In this document: positions 36,407-56,049 of the stretch, piece after piece
Layout: every line of letters starts with the position of its first letter
Position numbering within the stretch: position 1 is the first letter of the stretch
Origin: Solirubrobacteraceae bacterium
GTDB lineage: Bacteria > Actinomycetota > Thermoleophilia > Solirubrobacterales > Solirubrobacteraceae
Reading direction: 5' to 3'
DNA: 64,000 bases
Assembly (NCBI GenBank): GCA_049522915.1
Contig: JBEKNK010000001.1
Span: 4,052 to 68,051 of the forward strand
Program-made: the position numbers and the translations under genes
The notes under the pieces: generated by a model
Told to the model about the DNA's origin: nothing
Seen by the model: the letters and a program-made list of their open reading frames with translations, nothing else
The model's database searches: none

Positions 36407-36502
36407 TGATGATCGCCGGCACAAGCGGCGTTTCAGGCCCAGGTTTCTGGAAGACCCGCTAGCCCACTGAACCGCCGGCGGCCGGCCTGCGTAACAGACA
36501 TT

Positions 36503-40105: not shown

Positions 40106-41647
40106 ATGGCCGTCGAACAGGACAAGAACGCGGCCATCCGCCGCCAGGTTGCCGTCGGCACCGCCGCCAACTACGCGGGTCGCCTGATCAATCTCGGCAT
40201 CTGGTTCGTGCTGACGCCGATCATCTTCAGCCACCTGAAGTCGACGAACTACGGGCTGTGGGCGCTCGTCGCGTCCTTCGTCGCCTACGGCAGCCTGGCT
40301 GACCTCGGTATCGCGCAGGCGGTCACCAAGTATGTGGCTGAGTATCGCGCGCGCGGCGACAACGAGATGGCCACGCAGCTGATCTCGACCGCCCTGTGGC
40401 TCTACTGCGGCCTCGCCGTGCTCGTCGTCGCGCTGTCGGCCGTCATCGCGCCGTTCGTCCCGCATGTCCTGAAGGTGCCGGCCAACGAGCACGCGACGAC
40501 GTCCTGGCTCGTGGTGATCACGGCCGTCGGCGTCGCGGTGCAGCTGCCGTCAAATTGCGCGATCGCGGTGCTGCGGGGCCTGAACCGCTACGACCTGATC
40601 AACGTGATCGGGACCCTCGCGATGCTGAATCTGGCGGGCGGCATCGTCGCGGTCCTGCTGCTCGGTGGCAAGGTGCTGCTGATCACCGGCATCGCCGTGC
40701 CCGTGACGCTGCTGTGGCTCGCCCCGACGATCTGGCTGATCCACCGCACGGCGCCGGAGCTGCACTTCGGCTTCCGCGGCGCGCAGCGCCGCCACGCCCG
40801 GCGTGTGATGCTGTTCAGCTCGGCGCTGTTCGGGATCCAGGTCGCCTCCGTGGTCAAGCTGCAGAGCGACGAGTTCGTGATCGGCGCGTCACTGCCTGTG
40901 CGGGCCGTTTCGCCCTACTCGATCGCCCGCAAGCTCAGCGGCCTGCCGGGGCAGCTGACCAGCCAGTTCGTCTTCGTGCTGTTGCCCCTGGCCAGCCGCA
41001 TGCACGCCGAGGGCGACGCCGCGATGCTGCGCGAGATCTACCTCTCGGGCATGCGCCTGACCCTCGCGCTGTTCGCGATCGTCGGCGGCGCGCTGATCAT
41101 CTTCGCCCATCCGTTTCTTGTGGCCTGGCTGCCGGCGGCCGCCTCGAGCACCGACATCGTCGTGCTGCTGACGATCGCGGCGCTGCTCGAAGCGATGATC
41201 TCGCCGGTCTCGCAGGCCCTGCAGGGGATGAGCCGCCACCAGCCGCTGGTCGTGTTCGCACTCGGTTCGGCGGCGCTCAACCTCGCCCTCTCGATCGCGC
41301 TGATCGGCCCGCTCGGGGTGCGCGGCGTCGCGATCGGCACGCTCGTCGCCACCGCCGTCGAGGCCGCGATCGTGCTGCCGTTCGGGGCGCGGGTGCTCGA
41401 CGTCCGCGCGGCCGACGTCGTGCGTCGCGTTCTGATCCCGGGGCTCGTGCCGCTGATCCCGACCGTGGCGGTGCTCGTTGCGATCCACTCGACGCTGGCG
41501 CCGGCGTCGATCCCGGCGATCGCCGCGGCGGGGCTGGCCGGCGCCTTCGTCTACAGCGTCGGCTACCTGGCACTCCCCGCGACCGCCGGCGAGCGGGCGC
41601 TCGCGCGCCGGCTGCTCGCGCTGGGCCGCGGCCTGCTCTCGCGCTGA
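40106..41647 (+). CDS. polysaccharide/oligosaccharide flippase (Wzx-like, MOP superfamily)
   Basis: 513 aa with ~12-14 TM helices. N-terminal NYAGRLINLGIWFVLTPIIFSHL...YGLWALV pattern typical of Wzx/polysaccharide biosynthesis proteins. Confidence 0.8.
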   Translation: MAVEQDKNAAIRRQVAVGTAANYAGRLINLGIWFVLTPIIFSHLKSTNYGLWALVASFVAYGSLADLGIAQAVTKYVAEYRARGDNEMATQLISTALWLYCGLAVLVVALSAVIAPFVPHVLKVPANEHATTSWLVVITAVGVAVQLPSNCAIAVLRGLNRYDLINVIGTLAMLNLAGGIVAVLLLGGKVLLITGIAVPVTLLWLAPTIWLIHRTAPELHFGFRGAQRRHARRVMLFSSALFGIQVASVVKLQSDEFVIGASLPVRAVSPYSIARKLSGLPGQLTSQFVFVLLPLASRMHAEGDAAMLREIYLSGMRLTLALFAIVGGALIIFAHPFLVAWLPAAASSTDIVVLLTIAALLEAMISPVSQALQGMSRHQPLVVFALGSAALNLALSIALIGPLGVRGVAIGTLVATAVEAAIVLPFGARVLDVRAADVVRRVLIPGLVPLIPTVAVLVAIHSTLAPASIPAIAAAGLAGAFVYSVGYLALPATAGERALARRLLALGRGLLSR

Positions 41648-41662: not shown

Positions 41663-42436
41663 TCAGCAGCGAACGGCCGAGATGTTCCAGTCGCGCAGGG
41701 CGACGCTGCGGTAGGTCACCGCGGGATCGGCCGTCGTGCTCAGCGACGCGTCGATCGCGGGCCTACCCGAGGCGACGGCGATGACGGTGCTCCAGCCGGC
41801 GCCGGGAGCGAGCGTGATCGGACCGAACCGGCGCGCCGGCCTTCCCGCCACGAGCACCGAAACCTCATAGCTGGTGACGTGCAGCTGCTCGTTGATCACC
41901 CCCACGCAGGCCGCGCTGCGACCGTTCGGGGCCGGCACCAACCACAGCGCGCTCGTCTCCTGGGTGCCCGTCGGCGCCCGCAGCGGCGTGAAGCCGAGCA
42001 CCGCGGCGCCGGCCAGCAACGCGACGGCGACGGCCGCCGCGGCGCCATCTGCGCGACGGATGCGCAGGCGTGGCATCGCGATCGGACGAGCCAGTCCCCT
42101 GGCGCTCCCCCACGCAGCGCCGGCCAGCGTCAGTACGGCGAGCAAGCCCATCCACGGCGCGGTCGTGAGCGAGATGCCGAGCAGATCGAGTAGCAGCCCT
42201 GCGAGGATCGTTGCCGCGATGCTGAAGGCAACCGACAGCGTGGCGATCTCCGCCCCGCGCAGATCATGCGAGCGGAACAGCGCGCTGGCGAGCACGTAGC
42301 CGGGCAGCGCGAGCACGAGCGGCAGGCAGAGCAGCGTTCGCAGCAGGGCCAGGCTCGATGGGAGCACCGCCGCGAAGACGAGCGCCGCGAGCGCGAGCGC
42401 CATCGCGAGTGCCAGATCGGTCCGAGGTCTCACCAC
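41663..42436 (-). CDS. DUF1616-like membrane protein
   Basis: N-terminal TM helices with LPGYVLASALF...ATLSVAFSIA...GLLLDLLGISL pattern, plus a C-terminal beta-rich exported domain. Overlaps the upstream gene stop (GTGGTGA). Confidence 0.55.
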   Translation of the reverse strand: MVRPRTDLALAMALALAALVFAAVLPSSLALLRTLLCLPLVLALPGYVLASALFRSHDLRGAEIATLSVAFSIAATILAGLLLDLLGISLTTAPWMGLLAVLTLAGAAWGSARGLARPIAMPRLRIRRADGAAAAVAVALLAGAAVLGFTPLRAPTGTQETSALWLVPAPNGRSAACVGVINEQLHVTSYEVSVLVAGRPARRFGPITLAPGAGWSTVIAVASGRPAIDASLSTTADPAVTYRSVALRDWNISAVRC

Positions 42437-44262
42437 AGCCCGCGCACTCCGTAGATCACGAGGTTGCCGCCGTCGTACAGGCGGTTGGAGCCGGCGACGT
42501 TGAACTTCGAGTCCGTCGAGGCGGGCGCGAGCGACGGCGGCCCGACGTCGAAGTAGAAGCCGAACAGGTTGTCGCTGCTGATGTTCCGCCTGTCGCTGAC
42601 CACCAGCGTCGTGTGGTAGGAGCGCAGCAGCCTGCGCATCGCCGGTGTCAGCGTCCTTGCGTCGAGCAGATCATCGACGTCGGGGGCGAAGTTGCCCGTC
42701 AGCGAGGCCTGCAGCGCGAGCGTGAGGAAGAAGCGAGCGTCGGCGTCCTGCGCGAACACGTCCTGGGAGCGACCCAGCGTGCGGCCGCTCCACTGCGCCG
42801 CAACGACCGCCGGCGCGTCCAGGGTGCGACCGTCGACCGCGATCCGTTGGGGCTGGGCCAGGCGCTCGTTGGCGGGCCATCCGGCGATCACGCCGGAGCC
42901 GAACACGATCGCCACCGCAGCGCCGACGAGCAACCGCCCCCGCAGTGGACGCCGCTTGCCGCGCTCCAACATCCAGACCAGGCCCAGCGCCACCGTCAGG
43001 CCGACGCCGACGAAGAGAAAGTCGCCGGCCCGGCTGACCGTCTCCCACGCGTCTGGCACGAAGCGCAGCGGCAGCGTGCCGAGGTAGACGAACGCGCACA
43101 GCACGAGCAGCACCATCAGCGGGTTGCGCCAGCGTTGCTGCCACACCAGACGGACCCCCACGAGCACCCCGAGCCCGAGCAGGACGATCCCGCTCAGCGC
43201 GATGACGATCTCGGCCGGCGGCGTCACCTCGCCCCCGCCCTGGTTCGCGAACAGCGTGCGCGTCGGGGTCTCGCGGGCGAGGGTCTGGATCACCTGCTTC
43301 ACCGCGCTGGTGAGCACGGGACTGAGGTAACCGACGGTCCCCCCGGCAGCGATCGCCAGCCAGATGATCGTGAACAAGGCTGCGGCCCCCGCCAGCAGCC
43401 ACGGCGCTCCGGTGCGGCCGTGCAGACGCCAGTGAATCAGGCACACGCCGACCAGGAAGGCGACGAGCACGTAGGCCGAGACGTGGTGGGTGACGACGAC
43501 CGCGGCGGCAACGACCGCGAAGGCGACCTCCCACGGCCGTCGAAACTCGGGCCGGCGCTCCTGAGCCCAGCGGATCGTCACCAGCAGCGCCACGGTCGCC
43601 AGCGGCAGCGCGAGTGACTCGTATGCGAATTGGGCGGACCAGAAGAGGAAGTTCGGTGTGGCCGCATAGATCAGCGCACCGAGTCCCGCCGCGCGCTCCG
43701 AGCCACCGAGGCGCGCGTAGAGTAGGTAGAGCGCGAGCATCATCACCAGCCGACCGGCGGCGACGGTCGTCAGGCCCGCGGCGAACGGCGACATCCCGGC
43801 TGCCCGAGCGATCAACGCCGCGACCAGCTCGAGGCCGGGGTAGCGGGGGGTGATCGGGAGGATCGGGTTGGAGCCGAACAGCCGCCCTGTGGAGAGGATC
43901 GTCTGGAGGTTGTAGAGGTGAGGGAACTCGTCGCCGTAGGTGAAGGCGAACGGGTCGCGCAGCACCTTGACGGCATAGAGCGCCATACCCACGAGCACGA
44001 CTGTGGCCAGACGCTCCCCGGGCCGCACGCGAGCGCCGGCGAGGCGCACACCCGCCGGGAAGATGATCAGGATCATCGCCAGCCAGAACAGCAGCGAGGC
44101 GCCCCGATGTCCGGTCCGCGAGAGCGCATCGGCGCCGCTGACCACCATCACGCCGGCGGCCACCGAGAGGAAGATCCACGGCAGGCGGCCGAGCGGCGAG
44201 GACTGCTTCGCGGGTTCAGCCGGCGCGGCCGGCTGCGCGGGTGTGGCGACGAGGAGGGTCAT
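42430..44262 (-). CDS. large polytopic membrane protein (GT-C / polymerase-like) with C-terminal exported domain
   Basis: 610 aa from ATG 44262. About 13 TM helices followed by a ~200-aa soluble C-terminal domain. No family firmly recognised. Confidence 0.5.
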   Translation of the reverse strand: MTLLVATPAQPAAPAEPAKQSSPLGRLPWIFLSVAAGVMVVSGADALSRTGHRGASLLFWLAMILIIFPAGVRLAGARVRPGERLATVVLVGMALYAVKVLRDPFAFTYGDEFPHLYNLQTILSTGRLFGSNPILPITPRYPGLELVAALIARAAGMSPFAAGLTTVAAGRLVMMLALYLLYARLGGSERAAGLGALIYAATPNFLFWSAQFAYESLALPLATVALLVTIRWAQERRPEFRRPWEVAFAVVAAAVVVTHHVSAYVLVAFLVGVCLIHWRLHGRTGAPWLLAGAAALFTIIWLAIAAGGTVGYLSPVLTSAVKQVIQTLARETPTRTLFANQGGGEVTPPAEIVIALSGIVLLGLGVLVGVRLVWQQRWRNPLMVLLVLCAFVYLGTLPLRFVPDAWETVSRAGDFLFVGVGLTVALGLVWMLERGKRRPLRGRLLVGAAVAIVFGSGVIAGWPANERLAQPQRIAVDGRTLDAPAVVAAQWSGRTLGRSQDVFAQDADARFFLTLALQASLTGNFAPDVDDLLDARTLTPAMRRLLRSYHTTLVVSDRRNISSDNLFGFYFDVGPPSLAPASTDSKFNVAGSNRLYDGGNLVIYGVRGLW

Positions 44263-44272
44263 GGACGGCGCC

Positions 44273-45502
44273 TCAACGCCCGGCGAGGCTAGCTCTCCGG
44301 CTCGCGAGGGCTCGCTCGTAGGCAGCTTCGTAGCGGGGGACGACCGCCGGCGCGCTGAAGGCCTCGACGCGCGACCGCGCACCCGCGCCGAGGCGCTCAC
44401 GAAGCGCCGGATCGCCGATCAGCCGATCGAGGGCGCCGGCCAGCTCACCAGCGTCACCCGGCGTGACGAGGAGTCCGCTCTCCCCGTCGATGACGGCCTC
44501 GGGCAGCCCGCCGATCCGCGAGACCACGACCGCCGTGCCTGCGGCCATCGCCTCGAGCGCCACGGTCGGGAACGGGTCGGGCCAGATCGACGGGACGACA
44601 CCGATCGCGCAGCGCCGCCAGGCGGCGAGCAGGGCGTCGTGGGGCAGCAGCCCGAGATTGATCACGTTGTCGCGCATCGGCAGCAGGTGCGGCTCGACCG
44701 GCCGGCCCGCCACGACAAGCGGTGCCGCGGTGCTCATTCGAGCGTGGGCGTCGAGCAGTACCCCGACTCCCTTATCGGTGGTGATGTCGCCGGCAAAAAG
44801 AATGAAAGGTTCATTGGGAAGCCAGCTCGCAAGCGCTGGATCGAACCCGGCCGTGGCGGCGTCCGAGGCCCTGAAGTTCGGCACCACCTCGTAGGGCAGA
44901 CGGCTCCCGGTGAGGCCGCAGCGCCGCGCGACGTCGTTGCTGACCGGCAGCAACAGGTCGGCCGCGCGCCGCTGCGCGGCGCCCGAGAGCATCGTCAGGA
45001 AGGCCACGGGCGGCCCGACGGCGCGGCCATAGTGCTCGCCAGCGCAGACCGCGCACTTCGCCAGGGCCGGACCGCTGCACGGGGCGCCCCTGCGCATCAG
45101 GCGCTTGGTCGCGCAGCGCAGGCTGTAGTCGTGCAGGCTCAGCACGTACGCGGCGGAAGAGCGCCGGCGCAACGGCAGGTATGCGTGCGCCAGCCAGTTG
45201 TGCGCGTGGAGGACATCCGGGCGTTCGCGGGCGATCACGCGCCGCAGCGCCAGCACCGTCTCGGGGTCCGGTGCCGGCGGCGCGTGACGTCGCCCCGGCT
45301 CGCTGAACAGGCTTCCGACGCGCTGCGCGAGCCCCGGCAGGCGGTGCACGCGAATCCCGTCGATCTCCTCGAGCGCCGCGAGACCGGGCTGGCGCAACGT
45401 CGCCACCGCGACCTCGTGGCCCCGCTGCGCGAGGGCAGCCGAGAGCGACTGCGTCATGCGCTCCTCGCCGCCGACGATCGGCGCGTAGAACTGGGCGAGC
45501 AT
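44273..45502 (-). CDS. glycosyltransferase family 4 (GT-B) with Cys-rich insert
   Basis: MLAQFYAPIVGGEE N-terminus and the E-x7-E region (PDPFPTVALEAMAAGTAVV). Insert C-x11-C-x7-C-x2-C. Confidence 0.85.
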   Translation of the reverse strand: MLAQFYAPIVGGEERMTQSLSAALAQRGHEVAVATLRQPGLAALEEIDGIRVHRLPGLAQRVGSLFSEPGRRHAPPAPDPETVLALRRVIARERPDVLHAHNWLAHAYLPLRRRSSAAYVLSLHDYSLRCATKRLMRRGAPCSGPALAKCAVCAGEHYGRAVGPPVAFLTMLSGAAQRRAADLLLPVSNDVARRCGLTGSRLPYEVVPNFRASDAATAGFDPALASWLPNEPFILFAGDITTDKGVGVLLDAHARMSTAAPLVVAGRPVEPHLLPMRDNVINLGLLPHDALLAAWRRCAIGVVPSIWPDPFPTVALEAMAAGTAVVVSRIGGLPEAVIDGESGLLVTPGDAGELAGALDRLIGDPALRERLGAGARSRVEAFSAPAVVPRYEAAYERALASRRASLAGR

Positions 45503-45510
45503 CAGGATTC

Positions 45511-46671
45511 TCAACGCCGCCCACCTGCCGCGCGACGGTAGCGCTCGAGCAGCGCCGCCGCACACTCGTCCCATGTCGGCAGCGAGAACGGCGCCCGCAC
45601 CAACGGGTCGCGCAGCTCGCGCAGGATCGCCTCGGCGACCGCCTGAGCGGGCATGTCCGCCTCGATCGCGCGCGCCAAACCGCGCTGCGCGAGCTCGCCG
45701 AGACCCGAGCCGGAAGCCACCAGGAGTGGGCGCCCCAGCGAGATCGCCTCGAGCGCCGCGATCGGGTGCGTCTCGTAGTCGCTGAGCAGGGCCACGAGAT
45801 CCACCTCCGAGAGCCGGCGCGCCATCTCGGCGCGGTCATCGGCGGAGACGGCGCTGATCTCGACCGCGGCGGCGATCCCGAGATCCGCGGCCAGACGCCG
45901 TAGCTCCGCCTCGTACGGGCCCGCCCCGGCCACCCACAGTCGGGCCCCGGGCTCGGCGTCGAGCACGTGCGCGAACGCCGCGATCACGCGGTGGTGGCCC
46001 TTGTATCGCTCCAGCCGCCCGACCGAGGCGATCAGCGGATGCGCGGCCGGCGCGCTGCCATTCAGCGCCTGCGCCGGCGGCGGAAGATCCACGCCATTCG
46101 GGATCAGCGCAAAACGCTGCACCGGGATCCGAAGCTCCGCCGAGTAGGTCTCGATCTCGAACGGGGCGAGCGCGACGAGCGTGGCGGCCCGAGTGAGCAA
46201 TGGGCGCAGCAGCGCCCGCTGGGCGCGGCGAGCCCGGTTGCGCATCGGCTGCGAATGCCCGCCGCCGTGAAAGGTGAGGAGATATGGAATGCGACGCCGT
46301 GCGGCTGCGGCCATCGCGATCGGCGCCACGAACGTGTGGTAGGACTGCACGTGGACGACGTCCCATCCGCCCTCGGCGATCACCGTCGCGATCCCCGGCG
46401 CGAACATCCAGTCGCGTCCACGCGGGTGGGCGGCGACACGTCGGATCTCCACGTCGCCGTCCGCATCGGCGCTCGCTCCGCTGCCGTCGCTGACGGTCGT
46501 GAGCACGGTCACGGACGCCTCGCCGCTGCGCGCCAATCGCGTCGCCACTTCATGAACGTGGCGCTCCACCCCACCGATCTCCGGCAGATACCGCGGGGTC
46601 ACCATCAGCACGTTCAGCCGATGGTCCTGCGGGCGCCGGAGCGCGCCGCCCTCCCCTGGCACCTCGGTCAT
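45511..46671 (-). CDS. glycosyltransferase family 4 (GT-B)
   Basis: VLMVTPRYLPEIGGVERHV N-terminus and ETHPIAALEAISLGRPLL C-terminal motif. ATG overlaps the upstream stop (ATGA). Confidence 0.85.
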   Translation of the reverse strand: MTEVPGEGGALRRPQDHRLNVLMVTPRYLPEIGGVERHVHEVATRLARSGEASVTVLTTVSDGSGASADADGDVEIRRVAAHPRGRDWMFAPGIATVIAEGGWDVVHVQSYHTFVAPIAMAAAARRRIPYLLTFHGGGHSQPMRNRARRAQRALLRPLLTRAATLVALAPFEIETYSAELRIPVQRFALIPNGVDLPPPAQALNGSAPAAHPLIASVGRLERYKGHHRVIAAFAHVLDAEPGARLWVAGAGPYEAELRRLAADLGIAAAVEISAVSADDRAEMARRLSEVDLVALLSDYETHPIAALEAISLGRPLLVASGSGLGELAQRGLARAIEADMPAQAVAEAILRELRDPLVRAPFSLPTWDECAAALLERYRRAAGGRR

Positions 46672-47735
46672 GGTGCCAGCCGCTCGGAGGCCAGTGGCGC
46701 GCGCTGGGGTGAGCGATCCTCATCCGGGGGTGAGCCCGGCGCGAGCGGCTTCGTTGCGGCGCCCTCGCCGGCGGCGCCCTCGCGCCGCGCGGTGAAGCAG
46801 CGGCTGCGAGCGTAGGCGGCCGTCGTGATCCCCAGTCCCGCCGTGATCGCCGACGCACGCGCCACGCCATCGCCGCGTCCGCTCGCGGCGAGTCGCAGCT
46901 CACGGCGCAACGCGCGAGGCAGCACGGAGCGCACGTATGCGCGTTCTGAGCGCAGGCCCTCGTCGCCACCGGCGATGCCCGAGAGAACCGCCTTCGCGGT
47001 GCCCTCGACGACGCAGCGGCGCACGAAGTAACGCCAGGTTCCGCGCTCGGGCGGCACGGCGTGCGCGACGCGCGCCCGGGGCTCGTAGATCCAGTAATGC
47101 CCGGGGTGAGCGCGCGCGGCGCGGATGCACAGCTCGGTCTCCTCGGCGCTTCCCGACAGCGTCCTCGATCCGCCAGCGCGACCGAGCCGCGCGTCGAAGG
47201 CGCCCGCGCGCGCGAGAACCGCGGCCCGCATCGACATGTTCGCGCCGATCACGTTGCGGACACGGGCGGTGCTCGTCGGCATGCCGGCGTAGGTGCAGCC
47301 GACCACCCAGTTGAACTCCGGCGGGAACCACCGCGGCGCGCCCCGCTCCCAGGCCGGCTCGATCGAGCCGCCCACGCCGAGCACCTTCGGGTCGCTGTAG
47401 GCCTCCACCAGCCGCGCCAGCCAGTGCTCCTGCGCGATCGCGTCGTCGTCGAGGAACGCGAGAATCGAGCCCCGCGCCTCCTCGGCGCCGGTCTGGCGGG
47501 CACCCGACAGGCCACGATCGTGGCTGTTACGGACGATCTGCGCACCGCTCAGCCGGGCTCGCACGTGCTCCTCGAGCGCCTCGTCCCCATCGATCACGAC
47601 GATCGCCTCAAGCGGCGGCGGCGTTTGCGCGAGGACCGACGCCACCGCAGCGCGGAGGTTCGCGAGGCGCTCGAGCGTGTGGGTGCAGACGATCACCGAG
47701 ATCGTCTCCGGCTGGAGGCTCGTCGCGGACATCAT
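46668..47735 (-). CDS. glycosyltransferase family 2 (GT-A)
   Basis: ISVIVCTHT...VIDG...LSGARQTG...AFLDDDA (DxD). ATG-ATG start at 47735. Confidence 0.85.
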   Translation of the reverse strand: MMSATSLQPETISVIVCTHTLERLANLRAAVASVLAQTPPPLEAIVVIDGDEALEEHVRARLSGAQIVRNSHDRGLSGARQTGAEEARGSILAFLDDDAIAQEHWLARLVEAYSDPKVLGVGGSIEPAWERGAPRWFPPEFNWVVGCTYAGMPTSTARVRNVIGANMSMRAAVLARAGAFDARLGRAGGSRTLSGSAEETELCIRAARAHPGHYWIYEPRARVAHAVPPERGTWRYFVRRCVVEGTAKAVLSGIAGGDEGLRSERAYVRSVLPRALRRELRLAASGRGDGVARASAITAGLGITTAAYARSRCFTARREGAAGEGAATKPLAPGSPPDEDRSPQRAPLASERLAP

Positions 47736-47785
47736 CGACACAGTAGCCGTTGCACTTGGCGGCGCCCGACGTCCGCCGGCGAGCC

Positions 47786-49636
47786 TCAGCCGGGGCCCGA
47801 TCGCCGGCCTTCCCTGCCCAGGGTGCGTGCGAGCGCGGCGTCCAGGGCCTCGTGGATGTACACCTGCGACCAGGCTGAGCGGAACACGTGCTCCGCCGTC
47901 GGGATCCGCTCGAGGTGCAGGTTCGGCCACTCATCGAGCCGTTCCAGCAGGCCGTATGCGACGAAGTCGTCGTAGAGCGGCTCGCCGAGCGAGAGCAGCA
48001 GGAGGGACTCAACGTCACCCTCACGCAGCCGATCCAGGGCTTCGACGATGTCCGCGTCTGAGGTCGTGGTCGGGCTGCCGCCGCGTCCGAAGCGCATGCG
48101 CCGCGCGGTCACGCGCACCATCCTGGCGAGCCGCCAGCGATCGGCGGCAACGATCCGCGCGATCGTGCCCAGATCGCGCTCGCGCAGCAGCGCCCGTGTG
48201 CGCCGGGCGTCTCGCATCGCGCCGAAATCGTCGCTCCAGTAGAAGGCCAGAAGGTTCACGAGCAACAGGCCGCGCACGCGCTCGTCAGCCAGCGCCGCGT
48301 GCAGGCCCCAATAACCGCCCGAGCACAGGCCGCCGACGATGAACCGGCCGGGAAGGCCGCGGCGCTCGAGCTCATCGCAGGCGGCGATCACCTGCTTTGC
48401 GAGCTCGTGGCGCTGGAAGGACGTGCGCGCGGCGTAGAGGTCCTCTGCGCCGTCGGAGTCGCCGACCCCGAGCACGTCGAGCCGCAGTGTCGAGACCCCG
48501 CGCGCGGCCCAGCGGCGGGCCACCTCCACCCACATTCGGTGGTGGCCGATGCGCCGCACGGCGCCGGGGTTCAGCAGGATCGCGCAGAGCGCGACCTCGA
48601 CGGAGGAAGCGACCGGTTCGGTCAGCACGCCGCTGAGCAGCTCGCCGGCGAACTCGAACTCAAACGGCGTCTCGCGGATCGCGACCTCGGCGACCGTCAG
48701 CTCGAGCTCGGCCGCGCGCGCGGGCGCCGCCGCAAACGGCGGAAACGCGTCCGCCCCGGCGACTGCGTCGGCGAGCCAGCGAGTCGTGTACGCGAATGTC
48801 TCCCACGGCGTCTTCGAGAACTGGGGGTCGACCATCATCGCGCCGTAGCCGGCGCCGTCGGCGACCGTGACCTCGGCTCCGCTGCGTTCGTAGTGCTCGC
48901 GCAGCCGCTGGTCGACCTCGCTGGAGTCGCGCCGCAGGAAGAGAATTCGCCGCCGGTCGGCGTTGGGGACCGGCAGCTCGGTCAGCTTCAACGCCTCGAT
49001 CGCCGCCACGGTCTCGGCCGTCATCAGGAAGCCCGACGCGTTCACGGCGCCCTCGCCCAGCACCTCGCTGTCCGCGGGCGCCGGTGGTGTCTCCTTCACA
49101 GCACCGATGTGCACCGCCTCGGCGTCGAGAATCCGCGCGAAGGCCTGGAGCTCGCGCATGAAGACGTGGCCGCGCGAGTACACGCCCCAGAGCACGAGAT
49201 CGTCAATCGGCGCTCCAAGCGCAAGCGCGCGGGCTGCGACGATGCCGCCGAGCCCGATCCCGATCGCGACGATCCGCTCGCATCCCTGGTTCGCCCTCAG
49301 GGACGCTGCGACGCCTTCGAGCGCCGCGGTCCAGGCTTCGAGGCGCTCGGGATCCCGCGGCGACCCGGCGCTGTCGCCACAACCGGGCAGGTCAAACCGC
49401 AGCGTCGGATGGCCGGCCTCCGCGAGCGCGCCTGCCCAGGAGCGGAGACTGCGGTGTGAGCTCAGTTCGTCCCAGCCGAACGGGGAGCACAGAATCACGC
49501 CGGTGGCAGATCGCTCGCGCTCGCGCGGGATGTGCGCCATGACGAAGACCGGATCCGGCTCGGTTGCGAGGTAGAACGGGCGCCCGCGCGCGGCGAGCGG
49601 CCGATCGGCGAGCAGATCTGGAACGAGTTCGGTCAT
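47786..49636 (-). CDS. fused tandem alpha/beta-hydrolase-fold protein (hydrolase-2-like + hydrolase-1-like halves)
   Basis: 616 aa with two alpha/beta-fold halves. The nucleophile elbows read GIGLGG (Gly) and GLCSGG (Cys). Each half has an LRFD/LRLD...GxGDSxG segment. Confidence 0.65.
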   Translation of the reverse strand: MTELVPDLLADRPLAARGRPFYLATEPDPVFVMAHIPRERERSATGVILCSPFGWDELSSHRSLRSWAGALAEAGHPTLRFDLPGCGDSAGSPRDPERLEAWTAALEGVAASLRANQGCERIVAIGIGLGGIVAARALALGAPIDDLVLWGVYSRGHVFMRELQAFARILDAEAVHIGAVKETPPAPADSEVLGEGAVNASGFLMTAETVAAIEALKLTELPVPNADRRRILFLRRDSSEVDQRLREHYERSGAEVTVADGAGYGAMMVDPQFSKTPWETFAYTTRWLADAVAGADAFPPFAAAPARAAELELTVAEVAIRETPFEFEFAGELLSGVLTEPVASSVEVALCAILLNPGAVRRIGHHRMWVEVARRWAARGVSTLRLDVLGVGDSDGAEDLYAARTSFQRHELAKQVIAACDELERRGLPGRFIVGGLCSGGYWGLHAALADERVRGLLLVNLLAFYWSDDFGAMRDARRTRALLRERDLGTIARIVAADRWRLARMVRVTARRMRFGRGGSPTTTSDADIVEALDRLREGDVESLLLLSLGEPLYDDFVAYGLLERLDEWPNLHLERIPTAEHVFRSAWSQVYIHEALDAALARTLGREGRRSGPG

Positions 49637-52215
49637 CTGGCCTCTGTTCTCATGATCGGCAGGCGACCGGCGAGGTTGAGCGCTGTGAGCGCGCCGTCGC
49701 CCGGCCCAACCTCGCCCGCGAGAGCCCGCAGCGCGATTCGCCGCTCGCCGCCGGGCTCAATCGAGAACGCGTCATCGTCCGCCTGAAAGCCGGGAAGGTG
49801 CACACCCACACCGTAGACGAAGCACTTCGCGCGTATTTTCAGCTCAGCCGCACCGTCGCCCGTGGCGCTCAGAGTAGCCTGCAGTCCCAGCCGCGCCGCG
49901 GATTCGCGTTGCAGCGCACGCCCCGCGGGCAGCCGGAAGCATTGTGAGAGCAGCTCCACCCCGTCCTGGGTGTCGCGTTCGAGGCTGCAGGCAACGACAT
50001 CCGCCGCCACCGGGCCGAAGCGGTAGGCCCACGACACGTCCATGAAACGGCCGATCAGCTCCTCGACATCGTGCACGCAGCCCGAGTGCGGTGCGAGCTC
50101 CAGCTCTCGCGTCGCCTCCTCGACCCTGACCTCCGCATCGCGGTAGAGCGCGACGCGCAGCCGCGCGCGCACGGGCGTCGAGCCGTCGTTGGCGACGTGG
50201 ACCGCGATCCCGCCCAACCCCTCGTCGGTGCTCCACACGGCGAGCGGCGCCAGCACGCGGCGCAGATGGTGGTAGGCGACCTTCGGTTCGCCGCGATGGT
50301 CGAGCACGCCCCAGCCGGCGCCCGGGCAGAGGTCGCGCAGCCACAGCACGAGGCCCCCGCCACAGCCCGACTGCTCACGCCGCCACTCACCGAAGACCTC
50401 CGACATCACCTCACCGCTGAGCGCCCGCGACAGCTCGAGGTAGCGCTCGAGGTCGCTGCGGCGCAGCTCGGATGGGTCGACCGCGAACAACTCGGCGAGA
50501 TAGTGGTCGCGCACGTCGTCGAAGTCCCAGCCGACCCCGGTGTCGCGCGGGACGCCGGCCTTCCAGCGTGGGTCGTGAACGGCGACGGGCGCCGTGGATC
50601 CCTCGGCCAGCTCGTCGAGCACGGCCTCGCCGGGCACGTTCGCGAAGGCGAGGCACTCCGCGGCGAAGCGCACCTGCGAACGGCGCACGTCGTCGAGCGC
50701 GCGCCGGTAGCCCCCGACGCCGTAGTAGTTCGCGACGCCACGATCAGGGCGAAACGGCAGCGATCCGCCCCACGGCGCGGACGGGACCCATACGGCATCG
50801 ACCTCGGCTTCGCGGATCAGACTCGGCAGGAGCTCGCCGTAGAGCGGCCCGTCGGCGAGCGCCGGGTCGAGACCGAGCATTGCGACCTGCTGCGCGACCT
50901 CGCTCGAGCCGCAGAGGACGGCGAGGCTGGGACGGCCGCCGACGTCGTCGAGCAGCTGGCGCGCCTCGCTCGCAACGGCCACCATGAACGCCGGGTCCGA
51001 TTCGGGGTAGTCGAGGTTCGCGAACATGAAGTCCTGCCAGACGAGAATGCCCAGTTCGTCGCAGAGATCGTGGAAGGCGACCGACTCATACGCCGCGGTA
51101 CCGGGGATGCGCAACATGTTCATCCCGCCCGCGCGGACCGTTTCAAGCAGCGCTCGCAGGTCGGCGCGCGAGGTTGCTCCGCCGCTGGCCTCCAGGGGTG
51201 TCCACACCGCGCCGCGCACGAACACGGCGACGCCGTTGATCGTCAGCTGAAGTCCGTCGCGCTCGAGCGCTTCGCCGCCGCCCAGCTCGCGGAAGCCAAC
51301 CCGGCCGCAGTCGATCGTGAGGCTCCCCGGCTCGCCCTGCACCTGCAGCGTGACGTCGTAGAGGTTCGGGTCGCCGTGGGTGTGCGGCCACCAGCGCGCC
51401 ACATCCGCGACGGCCAGCTCGCCCTCTGCCTCGAGCTCGTCCGCGCCGACCCGCAGCGCCAGCTCGGCGGCGTGGCTTCCGCCCGGGCCGTCGATCGCAA
51501 CGACGATCCGCTCGGGCACGGGCCCGTCGAGCATGCGCAGGCGCGCGGTAACCGCGAGAACGCCGTCCTTCCCTTCGACGCGGGGTCGCAGCCGCAGGCC
51601 GCTGAGCTCGAGCGCCCGGCGGCGCTCGAGCGCCACCGGGCGCCAGGGCCCGACGACCGCGGGGCCGGGCGCGAAGCCCGGGGCTCGTCCGAGCAGCATG
51701 GTGCGAAAGAAACGCAGACCGCCCTCGCCGACGAGTCGCGTGCGCCAGCGCGCGCGCGGACGACGCGCGAGCGCGAGCAGCGGCGTGAGCGCGCGGCAGC
51801 AGATCGCAAGTTCGTTCTCCGCCGCCAGGAGCGCCGTGACGTCGACCGCCGAGCGGGCGAACATCGACTCGCCGGCGAGGATCCGCTCACCGTTGAGATA
51901 GACCTCGGAGACGGTCGCGAGACCGTCGAAGGCGAGCACGAGCTGCTCCCCCGGCCCGGCTGGATCGGCGATCAGGCGGCGGCGGAACCACCAGTCGCGG
52001 GCGTCCAGCGGCGTGGCGGCGATCTCCCGCCGCGGCACGCCGGCGTGAGTAAGCACGTCGGCGGCGGCGCCGGGAACGCGCGCCGGGCGCCAGAGGAGCG
52101 CATCGAGCCCGACCGGTTCGGCGTATGCGCCGGGCTCGGAGTCGGCAGCCTCCCAGCCGTCGCGCAGATCCTCACGCTCGTGCCCCTCGACGGCGCCGCG
52201 AGAGGTGCACGCCAC
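49633..52215 (-). CDS. glycoside hydrolase family 2 protein (beta-mannosidase-like), no signal peptide
   Basis: GMNMLRIPGTAAYE...FHDLCDELGILVWQDFMFANLDYP is a signature-like stretch. Candidate catalytic Glu in CGSSEV and FAAECL. GTG 52215 chosen; the ATG of the next gene overlaps its stop (ATGA). Confidence 0.7.
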   Translation of the reverse strand: MACTSRGAVEGHEREDLRDGWEAADSEPGAYAEPVGLDALLWRPARVPGAAADVLTHAGVPRREIAATPLDARDWWFRRRLIADPAGPGEQLVLAFDGLATVSEVYLNGERILAGESMFARSAVDVTALLAAENELAICCRALTPLLALARRPRARWRTRLVGEGGLRFFRTMLLGRAPGFAPGPAVVGPWRPVALERRRALELSGLRLRPRVEGKDGVLAVTARLRMLDGPVPERIVVAIDGPGGSHAAELALRVGADELEAEGELAVADVARWWPHTHGDPNLYDVTLQVQGEPGSLTIDCGRVGFRELGGGEALERDGLQLTINGVAVFVRGAVWTPLEASGGATSRADLRALLETVRAGGMNMLRIPGTAAYESVAFHDLCDELGILVWQDFMFANLDYPESDPAFMVAVASEARQLLDDVGGRPSLAVLCGSSEVAQQVAMLGLDPALADGPLYGELLPSLIREAEVDAVWVPSAPWGGSLPFRPDRGVANYYGVGGYRRALDDVRRSQVRFAAECLAFANVPGEAVLDELAEGSTAPVAVHDPRWKAGVPRDTGVGWDFDDVRDHYLAELFAVDPSELRRSDLERYLELSRALSGEVMSEVFGEWRREQSGCGGGLVLWLRDLCPGAGWGVLDHRGEPKVAYHHLRRVLAPLAVWSTDEGLGGIAVHVANDGSTPVRARLRVALYRDAEVRVEEATRELELAPHSGCVHDVEELIGRFMDVSWAYRFGPVAADVVACSLERDTQDGVELLSQCFRLPAGRALQRESAARLGLQATLSATGDGAAELKIRAKCFVYGVGVHLPGFQADDDAFSIEPGGERRIALRALAGEVGPGDGALTALNLAGRLPIMRTEAR

Positions 52216-52241
52216 GCGTAGGAGCTGGGCGCGGTCCGCGT

Positions 52242-53219
52242 CTATCCGACGACCTCCTCGAGCCCCGCGATCGCCTGCTTCCACGCGTCGCCGAGCGGCG
52301 CGACGATCGGCTCGGGGTCGAACGCGCGCCGGCGCGCCAGGCGGAAGCCGAGCACCTTGCAGCCCTCGACGATCGCGCGCATCGGCGCGGTACACGCCCG
52401 CGCGTCGGCGCCGAGCAGCCACTCCGCCTGCGTCGCGGCGAGCTCGAACGCGGCGCCCACCATGCGGACGGTCGCAAAGGCGTAGGCGTGGTAGGCCTCC
52501 GGCCCGGCCTCCAGCAGCATCGGGAGGTCGCGATCGAGCGCCTGCGCGAAGCGCTCGAAGGGATCGCTCGCCGGCCGATGGGCGAGGTGCCGCCGCAACG
52601 AGGCGAGAGCGCCGGCGCGCAGCTCCCGGCCGGCGAGCCGCGGTCCGGCGTCAAAGCGCACCAGCTCGGTGTAGGGCGGCAGGATCTCCGGCGAGGGTTC
52701 GCCGTCCAGGCGGAAGATGCCGGTGTAGTCCTCACCTTCGAGCTCGTAGAGGCCGGCGCCGTGGAAGTAGCGCAGCCACCCGCGCTCCAGGTCGATCGCC
52801 TCGGCGACGACCGAGCTCTTGACGTGCTCGGTGTGGTAGCTGGTCGCCGCCGTGTCCGGAAGGTGCCAGGAGTCGAGCTCGACGATCAGCGTGCGGCCGC
52901 TGTCAATCTGCTCCGCGATCTGCAGCGGCAGCGGGCGGTAGGGCTGCATCTCGTGGACGTCGATGCCGAACAGCGACTCGAGATCCTCCGGCGGCGGCTT
53001 GAAGAAGGTCCACTGATCGCCCTCGAAGTCCGTCCGCACCAGGCAGCCGAGCACCGCCAGCGGCTCATCGCCGCGACCGTGCAGAAGTTCGATGATGATG
53101 TCGGTGTAGCAGTTGGTCTCCATGTAGGTTCGTCCGCTGCCGTGCACAGCGTGCGAGCGGTAGCCGTCCGCGTCGAGGCCGAACAGGCTGCGGTAGGTGC
53201 CGGTACGCGTAGCGCTCAC
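52242..53219 (-). CDS. DUF1839-like protein (possible BtrH-like Cys-dependent acyl/aminoacyl transferase)
   Basis: 325 aa. N-terminal YMETNCYTDIIIELLHGRG. GTG start overlaps the ligase stop (GTGA 53216-53219). Family name is from memory only. Confidence 0.5.
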   Translation of the reverse strand: MSATRTGTYRSLFGLDADGYRSHAVHGSGRTYMETNCYTDIIIELLHGRGDEPLAVLGCLVRTDFEGDQWTFFKPPPEDLESLFGIDVHEMQPYRPLPLQIAEQIDSGRTLIVELDSWHLPDTAATSYHTEHVKSSVVAEAIDLERGWLRYFHGAGLYELEGEDYTGIFRLDGEPSPEILPPYTELVRFDAGPRLAGRELRAGALASLRRHLAHRPASDPFERFAQALDRDLPMLLEAGPEAYHAYAFATVRMVGAAFELAATQAEWLLGADARACTAPMRAIVEGCKVLGFRLARRRAFDPEPIVAPLGDAWKQAIAGLEEVVG

Positions 53220-54145
53220 ACCCACAGCTCCCGCCGGACATCCGCCGGCCAGGACGCCGGATCGACGCCGTGGGCGTGCAGGAGCGCCAGCACGATCCGC
53301 TCCTGGCCGAAGCCGAGGCACGCCGTGTGGGCGCCACCGCCGTCAGCGAGCTTCAGGTCGTAGATGCCCGCAAAGTGATCCTGGTGGTAGTTGAACGACG
53401 CCACTGCGGTTGGCTCGTCGCCGGCGATCGCCACCAGCAGCTCGAGCTTCAGCTCCTGGGCTCGCTGGTTGGCGGCCAGCATCCGGCCGCCGCGCCCGAA
53501 GAACGGATCGGTGGCACGATCGGGGCGGGCGTCCAGGCCGAGCGAGCGCAGCAGGCCGAGCCCGCGCTCGCACCAACCGTCGCGCCAGGCGCGGACCTCG
53601 TCCGGCGCGCCGAGCCGCACGATCTCGCGCTGATGGAACATCTGCAGGCGAGCCGGATCCTCCGACGGTTCGTGGCGGAACACCCACGCACCGCCTGCAT
53701 CCACGACGACGCCGCCGCTGGGCAGCGGGCCACGCGCGGCGACGGCCGGGTAGACCGGGTAGCAGGCCGCCGGCACCAGCGCGAGCTCGGTCATGGACTG
53801 GAACTGGCTCCAATCCTCGTGCCGGTCCGCACGCTCGCCCTGGACCAGCGCCTCCTCCTCCCCGCCCTCGAAGGCGAAGACCGATCCCGCCAGGTGCGGG
53901 AATGAGTGCAGGTAGCCGATCGTCTCGATCTGGCGTCGCGGGAGCAGCGGGGGGAAGCGCATCGACTCGGGGGCGTCAACCGCAGCGGCCCTCGTGATCA
54001 GCGCGTCGACGCGTGCGCGGACGTCCTCGAACACGGCGCCCTTGCCGTAGAGCCCGGGGACGCCACTGGAGATGAACAGCCCGTGCGCGATCAGCTCGTC
54101 GCGGAACGCCGCCTGATCCGCGGTGGCCTGACGAACCCTCGCCAT
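53216..54145 (-). CDS. amino acid--[carrier protein] ligase (class II aaRS catalytic-core homologue, SerRS-like, no tRNA-binding domain)
   Basis: 309 aa only. Class II motifs: RFPPLLPRRQIETIGYLHSFPHL, VFRHEPS...LQMFHQREIV, HTACLGFGQERIVLALL. Candidate Zn ligands are Cys (PAACYP), Glu (HQREIV) and Cys (HTACLG). Confidence 0.75.
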   Translation of the reverse strand: MARVRQATADQAAFRDELIAHGLFISSGVPGLYGKGAVFEDVRARVDALITRAAAVDAPESMRFPPLLPRRQIETIGYLHSFPHLAGSVFAFEGGEEEALVQGERADRHEDWSQFQSMTELALVPAACYPVYPAVAARGPLPSGGVVVDAGGAWVFRHEPSEDPARLQMFHQREIVRLGAPDEVRAWRDGWCERGLGLLRSLGLDARPDRATDPFFGRGGRMLAANQRAQELKLELLVAIAGDEPTAVASFNYHQDHFAGIYDLKLADGGGAHTACLGFGQERIVLALLHAHGVDPASWPADVRRELWV

Positions 54146-55344
54146 CAGGGCTCCTTGGCGATCAGCAGCAGCGCCGCGTCGGTGGCGTGCAGGCGCTCGT
54201 TCGCGACCATCAGGCGAGCGGACAGCGAGTCACGCAGGTGACGGCCGATGCTGTAGGGCGTGTCGTTTCGGTAGCCGACGATGCCAACCACCTCGAGCGC
54301 GCCGGCGCAGACGCTCGGCGCGTGCTCGGAGGCTGCGAGTTTCAGGTTGTTGAAGCGCAGCACGCTCGCCATCGTCATCAGGCGAGCGCGATCATCGAGA
54401 TCATCGGCCTGGAAGTCGTGCAGCGCCGCAGACACCTCGCCGCGCAGCAATGTGAGCTCCGCCATCACGTGCGAGAGCCTTGCCGCGGCAGGCAGCGGCT
54501 CGCCCGGCGCGCGGCGGGCGCTGGCTCGCAGGAAAGCGCGCGCACGCTCGAACGCGTCGCTCGCGATGCCGAGCCAGACATGCGACCAGAGGATGTGCGA
54601 GAGCGGCACCATCGACTGGTTCATGACCACGGCGAAGGGCGCCGTCATCACCTGCTCCGGGGCGAAGCGGGCGCGCACGACAAACCCGGGTGAGCATGTC
54701 CCTCGCATGCCCAGCGTGTCCCACGCGCCGGCGGGCTCGAGCTCGGCCTGGCCGAACTTGGTCAGCACGAGCACCTGGTCGCCGGGCTCGGCCTCGGGCG
54801 TGCGGCGCAGCGTCGTCAACAGGTCGTCGGCGTGAGCGCCGTAGCTGACGGTCGGAGCCTGCTTCTCGAAGCTCATCTCGCCGTCCGCTTCCGGCGTGAC
54901 CGCGGCGATCGAGCGGCTCATGTCGCCGCCGGTGCCGATCTCCGACGTCGCCGAGGCGATCAGCCGCTGATCGCGATGGAGGTCCTGCAGATAGCCCTCG
55001 AACCACGGCGCGCCGTCGAGGTGGCGCGCGATCGTCAGCACCTGGATCTGGTGCATCGCAAAGACCATCGCAGTTGCGCTGCAGCGGCGCCCGAGCTCGA
55101 AGCAGCAGCGTGCGATCGTCTCAAGCGACGCGCCGTCGCCGCCGAGCGACTCCGGCACCGCGGCGGACAGGGCGCCGGCGGCCCGCAGCGCGTCGATCGC
55201 CTCGGTGGGAAAGCGCGCCTCGCGGTCGACGCTGTCAGCCGCCGCGGCCGCGACATCCTCGGCGATCCGCCGGACGGCCTCAAGCAGCGCCCGCTCGGAG
55301 TCCACGGGGACGCTCATCGAGCGGCGCCGCAGCTCACGCGCCAC
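54145..55344 (-). CDS. acyl-CoA dehydrogenase family protein (probably acting on a carrier-protein-bound substrate)
   Basis: 399 aa with ACAD three-domain pattern (FPTEAIDAL, TSEIGTGGD, WDTLGMRGTCS, GYRNDTPYSIGRHLRD). The start may be GTG 55344 or ATG 55317. Confidence 0.8.
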   Translation of the reverse strand: MARELRRRSMSVPVDSERALLEAVRRIAEDVAAAAADSVDREARFPTEAIDALRAAGALSAAVPESLGGDGASLETIARCCFELGRRCSATAMVFAMHQIQVLTIARHLDGAPWFEGYLQDLHRDQRLIASATSEIGTGGDMSRSIAAVTPEADGEMSFEKQAPTVSYGAHADDLLTTLRRTPEAEPGDQVLVLTKFGQAELEPAGAWDTLGMRGTCSPGFVVRARFAPEQVMTAPFAVVMNQSMVPLSHILWSHVWLGIASDAFERARAFLRASARRAPGEPLPAAARLSHVMAELTLLRGEVSAALHDFQADDLDDRARLMTMASVLRFNNLKLAASEHAPSVCAGALEVVGIVGYRNDTPYSIGRHLRDSLSARLMVANERLHATDAALLLIAKEP

Positions 55345-55615
55345 CGCCCGCCGCCGACGGCTCGCCGTCGGCTGACAGCTCGGCGACCGCCGCAGCGATT
55401 GCCGACACGCTGTCGAACACGCCCCGGGTCAGCATCCGGTCGGGAAACTCGATGTCGAAGGCGTCCTCCAGCGCGAGCATCAGGTTCACGCTCGCGTGCG
55501 ACGTCATGCCCGCGGCGAACAGATCCGTGTCATCGGCGAGCGTGTCCACATCGACGGGCAGGCGGGCGTGCTCGCGCAGCACGCGGCGGATCACGATGCG
55601 AGTGTCGTCGGTCAA
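55334..55615 (-). CDS. dedicated acyl/aminoacyl carrier protein
   Basis: 93 aa. LFAAGMTSHASVNLMLALEDAFDIEF, with Ser in the phosphopantetheine (DSL) position. TTG start overlaps the PPTase stop (TTGA). Confidence 0.7.
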   Translation of the reverse strand: MTDDTRIVIRRVLREHARLPVDVDTLADDTDLFAAGMTSHASVNLMLALEDAFDIEFPDRMLTRGVFDSVSAIAAAVAELSADGEPSAAGGGA

Positions 55616-56049
55616 CGCTCGCCACGCACCCGGGCGACGACGACCGCAGCCGCAAACGGGCCCTCATGGGTGAGGCTGACGTCAAGCCCCTCGACGCCGC
55701 GCATGAGCGCGAGCTCCCGCGCAGCACCCGTGAGCTCGATCGACGGTCGTCCGAAGCGGTCGGCGCGAACACCGACCGCCTGCCAGGGAACGGCCTCGTC
55801 GCCGGCGCGCAGCACCTTCAGCGCTGCCTCCTTGGCGGCGAAGCGGGCGGCGAGCCGTCGGGCGTCGGGCGCTCCGCCCGCGCTGGCGCAGTCGCGCAGC
55901 TCGCGGCTCGTGTACACCCGCCTAAGATAGCGCCCGGCGTGGACGCGGATTGAGTCCTCCACGGCGGCGACGGACATCAGGTCGATGCCGACCACCACGC
56001 CGTCGCGACGCGACGTGGCAGCGCTCCTCGCCCTGCCCCGGCGGATCAC
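55612..56049 (-). CDS. 4'-phosphopantetheinyl transferase, AcpS type
   Basis: VGIDLMSV and FAAKEAALK motifs. 145 aa. GTG start overlaps the methyltransferase stop (GTGA). Confidence 0.8.
   Translation of the reverse strand: MIRRGRARSAATSRRDGVVVGIDLMSVAAVEDSIRVHAGRYLRRVYTSRELRDCASAGGAPDARRLAARFAAKEAALKVLRAGDEAVPWQAVGVRADRFGRPSIELTGAARELALMRGVEGLDVSLTHEGPFAAAVVVARVRGER

Follow-up and report, generated by a model that had tools for sequence, protein, structure and literature searches.

A fused double alpha/beta-hydrolase as candidate for the step after amino acid loading in a carrier-protein cassette of Solirubrobacteraceae

What happens to an amino acid once it has been loaded on a small carrier protein by a paralogue of class II aminoacyl-tRNA synthetases (aaRS)? 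A 2022 review gives the role of carrier aminoacylation and the fate of the aminoacyl-carrier as unknown. The question is raised by a 64,000-nucleotide stretch of a Solirubrobacteraceae bacterium (GenBank assembly GCA_049522915.1, contig JBEKNK010000001.1, positions 4,052 to 68,051), called the window here, in which a cassette with such an amino acid:[carrier protein] ligase and its carrier ends in a gene for a fused double alpha/beta-hydrolase. This gene (47786..49636, minus strand; 616 amino acids, ATG start) was defined by the open reading frame (ORF) listing and translation, Pfam, NCBIfam and an AlphaFold2 model. Our analysis suggests that its product is the best candidate for the step that follows amino acid loading on the carrier, probably in the synthesis of a sugar polymer. 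Among downstream enzymes whose active site would suit a thioester, it shows the most consistent linkage, and it gives an orphan aminoacyl-carrier pathway a next step that can be tested. The protein can be described as a divergent, fused version of two enzymes that are recognised as a pair but uncharacterised.

Two hydrolase domains in one chain

A preliminary description, made from the letters of the window, had read the protein as two alpha/beta-hydrolase folds in tandem with Gly and Cys in place of Ser at the nucleophile elbows, and both readings held. The translation contains AIGIGLGGIVA, DDLVLWGVYSRGHVFMRELQAF, NPGAVRRIGHHRMWVEVARRWAARGVSTLRLDVLGVGDSDG and GGLCSGGYWG. Pfam returned Abhydrolase_6 (52.3 bits), Abhydrolase_1 (44.1) and Hydrolase_4 (43.5), all above their gathering thresholds; each of the three families matches in two stretches, and only such generic alpha/beta-hydrolase families were found. 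The structure prediction that the description had proposed, an AlphaFold2 model built from 37 homologues (pLDDT 85.1, pTM 0.87), has two alpha/beta-hydrolase cores, with a helical cap at about residues 469-539 on the second, and places G128 and C438 at strand-turn-helix junctions. Foldseek against the PDB matched only alpha/beta hydrolases, ordinary esterases and lipases, each spanning one half, and a PDB sequence search found no close solved relative. By its Pfam scores and its strand-elbow-helix cores, the protein belongs to the alpha/beta-hydrolase superfamily. In a profile-profile comparison, the halves match each other (99.5% probability, E 2.4e-22) and the Gly/Arg column of the first stacks on the Cys column of the second, which argues that the two are old paralogues. 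No N-terminal signal-like sequence was seen in the translation, and the hydrolase is predicted to be cytoplasmic. A hydrophobic peak at residue 122 was considered as a membrane segment and discarded, as in the model it corresponds to the core strand and helix around the elbow.

The C-terminal domain (residues 310-616; 47786..48709, minus strand), delimited by its best match to TIGR03100 and by secondary structure, carries Cys438, His583 and Glu552 at positions that the model and the alignments assign to the classical alpha/beta-hydrolase triad. Cys438 (codon 48323..48325, checked in the DNA) is the predicted nucleophile; in the model, strand 432-437 leads to C438 and on into helix 439-450. The predicted base, His583 (47888..47890), comes after strand 573-578, and the predicted acid, Glu552 (47981..47983), after strand 543-549. 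Among 68 homologous hydrolases taken from genomic loci, additional to the 37 fused homologues of the model alignment, position 438 is Cys in all 68, position 583 is His in 66 and position 552 is Glu in 60 and Asp in 4. All 37 fused homologues have G436, C438 and H583, and nearly all have E552. Judged from these alignments, the conservation of the triad positions is far beyond chance. When the triad was placed by alignment with bona fide members of the exosortase A-associated hydrolase 1 family, another check that the description had proposed, C438, H583 and E552 fell on its Cys, His and Asp, the first two being invariant and the Asp belonging to SGxDLTA; the N-terminal half showed no triad. 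Two loci hold a paralogous double hydrolase 3' of a methyltransferase gene (L060 13054-14802; L088 12853-14571), which keeps the Cys, has Gln for His583 and lacks the acid.

The N-terminal domain (residues 1-300; 48737..49636, minus strand) has TIGR03101, exosortase A-associated hydrolase 2, as its best match and, aligned with bona fide hydrolase 2 proteins, is predicted to lack a catalytic triad. Its elbow position is Gly128 (codon 49253..49255, also checked), where strand 121-127 of the model turns into helix 129-139. Against the solved alpha/beta hydrolase 9pir, IGIGLGG pairs with LGFSLGG and G128 falls on a Ser that we regard, following the GxSxG convention, as the catalytic nucleophile; against bona fide hydrolase 2, G128 meets the Arg of GLRLG. 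Among the 68 homologues, 59 have Gly at position 128, five have Arg, three Ser and one Ala, and G126, G128, G130 and G131 are invariant in the 37 fused homologues, down to 42% identity. Ser128, Asp237 and His270 occur together in 0 of 70 homologues, and since no sequence combines them the domain appears to be dead throughout the family. A canonical GxSxG elsewhere in the chain would speak against these assignments, and two candidates exist, GDSAG (residues 87-91) and GDSDG (392-396). Both were rejected as true elbows since they sit in the loop that connects strand 4 to the following helix, and since 9pir has the corresponding motif, GDSEG, apart from its GFSLGG elbow. Three hydrolases (in loci L022, L037 and L069) read GISLGG, with Ser at the dead elbow; an active N-terminal domain was ruled out for them, as none has His at position 270. 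The alignments present the Gly as a local replacement of the family's Arg. We infer for the domain the role of an inbuilt partner, which probably helps to form the binding site or provides a docking surface for carrier or acceptor.

Kinship with the exosortase A-associated hydrolases

The preliminary description had likened the two halves to hydrolases 2 and 1 of exosortase-A loci. The best NCBIfam matches do come in that order: TIGR03101 for the N-terminal half (89.7 bits, E 2.2e-25), where residues 19-259 cover positions 1-238 of a profile of 266, and TIGR03100 for the C-terminal half (79.1 bits, E 3.3e-22), where residues 322-597 cover positions 2-267 of 274. However, both scores are less than half of the curated cut-offs (202.75 bits for TIGR03101, hydr2_PEP, and 168.45 bits for TIGR03100, hydr1_PEP), and therefore the window hydrolase is not a family member; on the profile scores it is clearly homologous to both, and we regard it as their relative. 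The motifs quoted in the description for these families are real. The bona fide families were sampled by a metagenome scan for W-G-L-C-D-A-A, which matched 120 loci, and the upstream GG.Q.R.G..R motif of hydrolase 1 was present in 59 of them. The four bona fide pairs tested pass both cut-offs (239-312 bits for TIGR03101, 335-361 bits for TIGR03100); their hydrolase 2 reads GLRLG and LWQPV, and their hydrolase 1 reads GGPQYRVGSHRQF, WGLCDAAS, SGxDLTA and DHTFS. The bona fide gene order is ACP (the carrier protein), hydrolase 2, hydrolase 1, which is the order of the halves in the window protein.

According to these alignments, Cys, His and an acid are family-wide in hydrolase 1, with the Cys as a family hallmark, and the window C-terminal half has all three. 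Hydrolase 2, in turn, appears to lack a nucleophile throughout, with Arg in bona fide members and Gly in the window protein. The Arg occupies the dead elbow in the four bona fide hydrolase 2 proteins and in relatives from Azospirillum, Cupriavidus, B. gladioli and Variovorax. The window N-terminal half departs from TIGR03101 in two traits: it reads GIGLGG where the family has Arg in GLRxG, though the nucleophile is likewise absent, and it forms the N-terminal 300 residues of one chain instead of a separate protein of about 270 residues 5' of hydrolase 1. No exosortase was found among the ORFs of the 64-kb window covered by general family scans, and a literature search returned no functional study of TIGR03100 or TIGR03101.

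The description had also stated that the hydrolase pair accompanies an acyl-CoA ligase and an ACP. An ACP gene lies directly 5' of the two bona fide pairs whose loci were read, and an ACP-like motif 5' of the pair was found in 25 of 34 loci with enough sequence; an AMP-ligase signature within 6 kb of the pair was found in 7 of 22 longer loci. The acyl-CoA ligase claim rests on this motif scan because most of what NCBIfam identified around two pairs of exosortase-A type was either unrelated (type VI secretion, GlgB) or an ORF in the wrong frame. In one locus (L158 5757-10989), a bona fide ACP-hydrolase 2-hydrolase 1 trio lies beside TssH, TssG, TssF and GlgB, and not beside polysaccharide genes. 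A different arrangement is seen in Variovorax paradoxus CP063167 (locus L003 1-13501), where an unfused pair (GARLGA, GMCSGA) comes after a nonribosomal peptide synthetase (NRPS) and a 4'-phosphopantetheinyl transferase (PPTase) and before polysaccharide export genes. This NRPS has a C-A-T-C-T layout without a thioesterase domain, and the protein encoded before it combines carrier and class-III aminotransferase domains. The suggestion of interchangeable loading enzymes was strengthened by these cases, as the candidate loaders now include an AMP-ligase signature with an ACP in some exosortase-A-type loci, the Variovorax NRPS with its PPTase and the aaRS-like ligase of the window.

A conserved carrier cassette and its polysaccharide settings

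The hydrolase is the conserved last gene of a cassette of PPTase, ACP, acyl-CoA-dehydrogenase-fold flavoprotein (ACAD-like), ligase, DUF1839 protein, GH2-like protein and hydrolase. A ligase-alignment scan of GTDB species genomes gave at least 592 loci, and the counts given here come from the best 80, nearly all from metagenome-assembled genomes (MAGs) of Thermoleophilia type; the loci from Bradyrhizobium and Agrobacterium in the first ligase papers lie outside this set. Near the ligase, the 80 loci hold the ACP in 75 cases, the ACAD-like gene in 74, DUF1839 in 72, the GH2-like gene in 69, the fused hydrolase in 61 and the PPTase in 57. Where flanks were adequate, 54 of 65 ligase loci have the fused hydrolase, and 42 of these 54 keep the order ligase-DUF1839-GH2-hydrolase. 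Another five of the 54 are minimal cassettes, which retain ACP, ligase and hydrolase without DUF1839 and GH2; one of the five has an ATP-grasp enzyme and a second double hydrolase in addition. Beyond these genomes, an Azospirillum oryzae plasmid has the identical six-gene order, and a comparison of two plasmid searches showed that, of 55 plasmid or chromid records containing the hydrolase, about 35 have the ligase no more than 25 kb away. A variant was observed in two loci (L016 7926-12748; L030 7500-15205), with PPTase, ACP, ligase and double hydrolase, without DUF1839 and GH2, and with a second, divergently transcribed double-hydrolase-like gene; in L030, ACAD-like and ATP-grasp genes follow. 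Homologues of the two window GT4 glycosyltransferase genes occur in 7 and 9 of the 80 loci, and those of the window PMT_2 gene and of the downstream GT2 gene in 3 each.

In the window, the cassette is part of a long single-strand operon on the minus strand, with abutting or overlapping genes. The operon is headed by a GT2 glycosyltransferase (56979..58028; PF00535, E 8e-24) and a S-adenosylmethionine (SAM)-dependent methyltransferase (56046..56978; Pfam Methyltransf_25 and Methyltransf_11), which has the same position in loci L005 and L006. The PPTase (55612..56049; PF01648, E 2e-14), the dedicated carrier protein (55334..55615; PF00550 and NF005480, 110 bits against a cut-off of 72) and the ACAD-like flavoprotein (54145..55344; Pfam Acyl-CoA_dh_N and Acyl-CoA_dh_1) follow. 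The ligase (53216..54145) scores 398 bits with NF005479 against a cut-off of 357, so that ligase and carrier both pass their NCBIfam cut-offs, and phmmer aligned its residues 8-305 with the Bradyrhizobium japonicum Bll0957 structures 4h2w and 3mey (E 4e-81 and 5e-79). The DUF1839 gene (52242..53321, true start probably near 53219; PF08893, E 1e-96) encodes a protein of papain-like fold, a family described with a C(T/S)H triad (PMC10318531). The GH2-like, beta-mannosidase-like gene (49633..52422, true start probably near 52167) matches Pfam Glyco_hydro_2_N2 and Glyco_hydro_2 and PDB beta-mannosidases (E 3e-48). It reads CGSSEV where beta-mannosidase has CGNNEV, and no obvious signal sequence was seen; the NE of CGNNEV contains the acid/base Glu, which the window protein keeps, with Ser for Asn. 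Its stop overlaps the hydrolase ATG as ATGA, so that a glycosidase-like gene is translationally coupled to the hydrolase within a carrier-protein operon.

Downstream, still on the minus strand, lie an AglG-like GT2 glycosyltransferase (46668..47930, likely start near 47735; PF00535 and NF041394, E 1e-62), two GT4 glycosyltransferases (45511-46671 and 44273-45574; Pfam Glycos_transf_1 and Glyco_transf_4) and a PMT_2-family membrane glycosyltransferase (42430..44400; PF13231, E 3e-8). A Wzx-type polysaccharide flippase-like gene (40067..41647; PF13440, E 1e-11) is on the plus strand, and just past it two GH16-domain proteins flank a cyclopropane-fatty-acyl-synthase-like methyltransferase (34874-39221, plus strand). 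Further away, three very large ORFs (847, 867 and 1012 amino acids; 16450-24718, minus strand) have an extreme third-position G+C of 0.88-0.96. The window as a whole has a G+C content of about 71%, and its nearest relatives are MAGs labelled Solirubrobacterales or Solirubrobacteraceae.

The fused form is widespread. A profile search over 1.84 billion representatives (clusters at 50% identity) returned 15,316 clusters with E<=1e-3, of which 3,048 reach E<=1e-30, and the best 150 are nearly all full-length, at about 600 residues, with Proteobacteria included. Fused double hydrolases were found in Azospirillum, Rhizobium, Cupriavidus and Burkholderia, most with Arg at the dead elbow. The preliminary description had pointed to the fusion and its pairing with an aaRS-like ligase in a Gram-positive-type genome; neither is peculiar to this genome, as the same cassette occurs in Azospirillum and Mycetohabitans and is dispersed in polysaccharide loci of Burkholderia and Cupriavidus. 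The hydrolase and the ligase keep together across bacterial phyla. Some longer proteins contain, in one chain, the double hydrolase and a Wzx/MurJ-like flippase (P0132), a GT4 glycosyltransferase (P0260) or a SAM methyltransferase (P0204, P0244).

R. tumorigenes and B. gladioli also have fused homologues at the head of Wzx/Wzy-type clusters or inside them. Both B. gladioli and B. cenocepacia have an operon ACP-ACAD-ligase-DUF1839-GH2 between genes for Crp/Fnr-type and sigma-54-type regulators, and in two Burkholderia loci (L209 19613-27935; L210 3281-11625) the genes flanking the ligase operon match BerA and BerB. This layout agrees with the published positions in the Bep locus, where BerA is Bcam1349 and BerB is Bcam1342; both are regulators of that locus responsive to cyclic di-GMP. 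The Burkholderia GH2 is 43% identical to the window GH2-like protein. The Burkholderia fused hydrolase shares a locus with the ligase operon, where it is surrounded by polysaccharide genes, and corresponds by position to Bcam1334, which has been flagged as TIGR03100-like (PMC3584217). In the related bec cluster of B. pseudomallei, 15 of 18 genes, including the ACAD-like becG, gave biofilm-deficient mutants (PMC5507470). Our literature search found no paper connecting amino acid:[carrier protein] ligases with Bep.

Proposed acyl transfer and comparison with known systems

The explanation that we favor, with about even confidence, is that the cytoplasmic fused hydrolase 2/1 protein takes the carrier-bound aminoacyl group on Cys438 and hands it to a sugar acceptor. 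The PPTase would prime the ACP, and the aaRS-like ligase would load a small amino acid on it as a thioester; the ACAD-like enzyme, and perhaps the methyltransferase, may then modify the tethered group. Cys438 would attack the thioester to give an acyl-S-enzyme, which a hydroxyl or amine of the sugar acceptor would resolve on the cytoplasmic face, before flipping; the likeliest acceptor is a lipid-linked oligosaccharide repeat unit or some other precursor of a glycan. The analysis shows the identity of the domains, the conservation of the residues and the linkage of the genes. We infer each chemical step and the acceptor, with gene context as the basis for proposing acyl transfer to a glycan and with Cys-dependent transferases of alpha/beta-hydrolase fold and carrier-dependent aminoacylation of the envelope as the models for the chemistry.

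An enzyme of alpha/beta-hydrolase fold encoded by the last gene of a carrier cassette could instead be a thioesterase, which would hydrolyse the (modified) aminoacyl-S-ACP and release a small molecule or clear a mis-loaded carrier, with no glycan acceptor. Such a function would agree with the lack of adjoining glycosyltransferases in most cassettes, and with the Variovorax pair coming after a thioesterase-less NRPS, where a release enzyme is expected. However, the type I and II thioesterases known to us use Ser, whereas the Cys is invariant in this family, the obligate dead partner domain would be left unexplained, and relatives lie within polysaccharide clusters, some of them joined to a flippase or GT4 in one protein; we consider this function unlikely. 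Even less probable to us is a condensing or shuttling enzyme, in which the acyl-S-Cys would be attacked by a second carrier-bound unit or by a carrier thiol, giving an oligomer as in PhaC or a transfer between carriers as in SyrC and CmaE. The GLCSGG elbow does resemble both the PhaC box, GxCxGG, and the GxCxG that SyrC and CmaE have, the fused pseudo-dimer is reminiscent of dimeric synthases, and the variant cassette has an ATP-grasp enzyme and a second double hydrolase. Nevertheless, there is a single carrier gene per cassette, bona fide hydrolase 1 reads GLCDAA, so that the GG is not conserved, and no PhaC-family Pfam match was found in the hydrolase even at E up to 10, only the short GLCSGG motif fitting.

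It would also be conceivable that the protein acts independently of the carrier, as a glycan or lipid esterase or similar enzyme, its linkage to the ligase reflecting a shared pathway in which DUF1839 is the real transferase. The Burkholderia and Cupriavidus hydrolases, encoded 11-21 kb from the ligase operon amid polysaccharide genes, would suit this, as would homologues without a ligase on the same replicon (e.g., in R. tumorigenes) and the nature of DUF1839 as a papain-like cysteine enzyme. Yet minimal cassettes keep ACP, ligase and hydrolase without DUF1839, unfused relatives lie directly 3' of the ACP gene, and the protein has no N-terminal signal-like sequence, whereas the mature polymer would be extracellular; we find this reading improbable.

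It is important to consider the points that weigh against transfer from Cys438 to a sugar. Some Cys alpha/beta hydrolases truly hydrolyse, dienelactone hydrolase being an example. The papain-like BtrH is a carrier-to-sugar acyltransferase, and DUF1839 is a second cysteine enzyme of the cassette, a candidate acyltransferase or amidase; therefore, DUF1839 could be the transferase and the hydrolase could have another function. Most cassettes of the 80 genomes have no glycosyltransferases 3', and therefore the acceptor could be a small molecule. NCBIfam labels TIGR03100 and TIGR03101 "hypothetical equivalogs", and the extra-long hydrolase proteins may be gene-calling artefacts or merged calls. Finally, the published Bep repeat unit, obtained by extraction in 0.3 M NaOH and nuclear magnetic resonance in NaOD, has no substituent; we would expect these conditions to remove ester substituents.

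Sugar transfer by Cys438 can be extended to a wider proposal, which we hold as a tentative possibility and rather doubt as a whole. The ligases would feed a widespread pathway in which a carrier-bound amino acid, possibly oxidised or methylated, is esterified onto lipid-linked repeat units via the Cys-dependent double hydrolase; with an AMP-ligase or an NRPS as loader, this chemistry would also account for the exosortase-A pairs, and Bep/Bec would carry a base-labile aminoacyl decoration missed in NaOH/NaOD. Apart from this proposal, the window hydrolase brings the exosortase-A hydrolases 1 and 2, the TIGR03100-like Bep gene and the NRPS-adjacent pairs together in one enzyme family with a shared logic, and it suggests that a clinically relevant biofilm polysaccharide may have a hidden modification.

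The systems to which the cassette can be compared share different parts of it. SyrC, CmaE and PhaC are alpha/beta-hydrolase enzymes with a Cys nucleophile that handle thioester substrates by transfer; their GxCxG elbow with Cys, thioester substrate and covalent acyl-S-enzyme followed by transfer amount to a likeness of mechanism with the proposed Cys438 enzyme. In contrast, they consist of one domain or form homodimers, and they pass the acyl group to another carrier or to a growing polyester. Aminoacylation from a carrier protein to the envelope is carried out via other enzymes in Dlt (D-alanine on teichoic acids), AlmEFG (glycine on lipid A) and BtrH (with BtrI, for the side chain of butirosin), and these systems have in common with the cassette that a ligase loads a small carrier and a transferase moves the amino acid to a glycopolymer, glycolipid or sugar. 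The ligases of Dlt, AlmEFG and BtrI (ANL, ATP-grasp) and the transferases (MBOAT/DltD, LpxL-like, papain-like) are unrelated to the cassette enzymes, and DUF1839 alone in the cassette shares a fold class with BtrH.

Closer are the systems linked by homology. Bll0957, the closest characterised relative of the window ligase, reportedly loads glycine. The window ligase and carrier pass NF005479 and NF005480 and resemble in this the Bll0957 system of Bradyrhizobium japonicum (Mocibob et al. 2010, 2013); ligase and carrier are the subject of those studies, and the double hydrolase is a downstream gene in the window cassette. The Bep/Bec locus (Bcam1330-1350; becA-R) has the same six gene families as the window, but its hydrolase is 14-21 kb from the ligase operon, adjacent to it in the window, and is about 26-28% identical to the window protein, with Arg at the dead elbow in B. 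gladioli; Wza/Wzc/Wzy machinery surrounds the Bep/Bec hydrolase and is absent from the window. TIGR03100 and the window C-terminal half share the Cys, His and acid columns and a G..R..R stretch after strand 3, TIGR03101 and the N-terminal half share the lack of a nucleophile, and pair and fusion alike have an ACP in the same operon. The window differs in having one fused chain, with Gly for Arg, Glu for the Asp acid and GLCSGG for GLCDAA, and in its candidate loader, an aaRS paralogue instead of an AMP-ligase.

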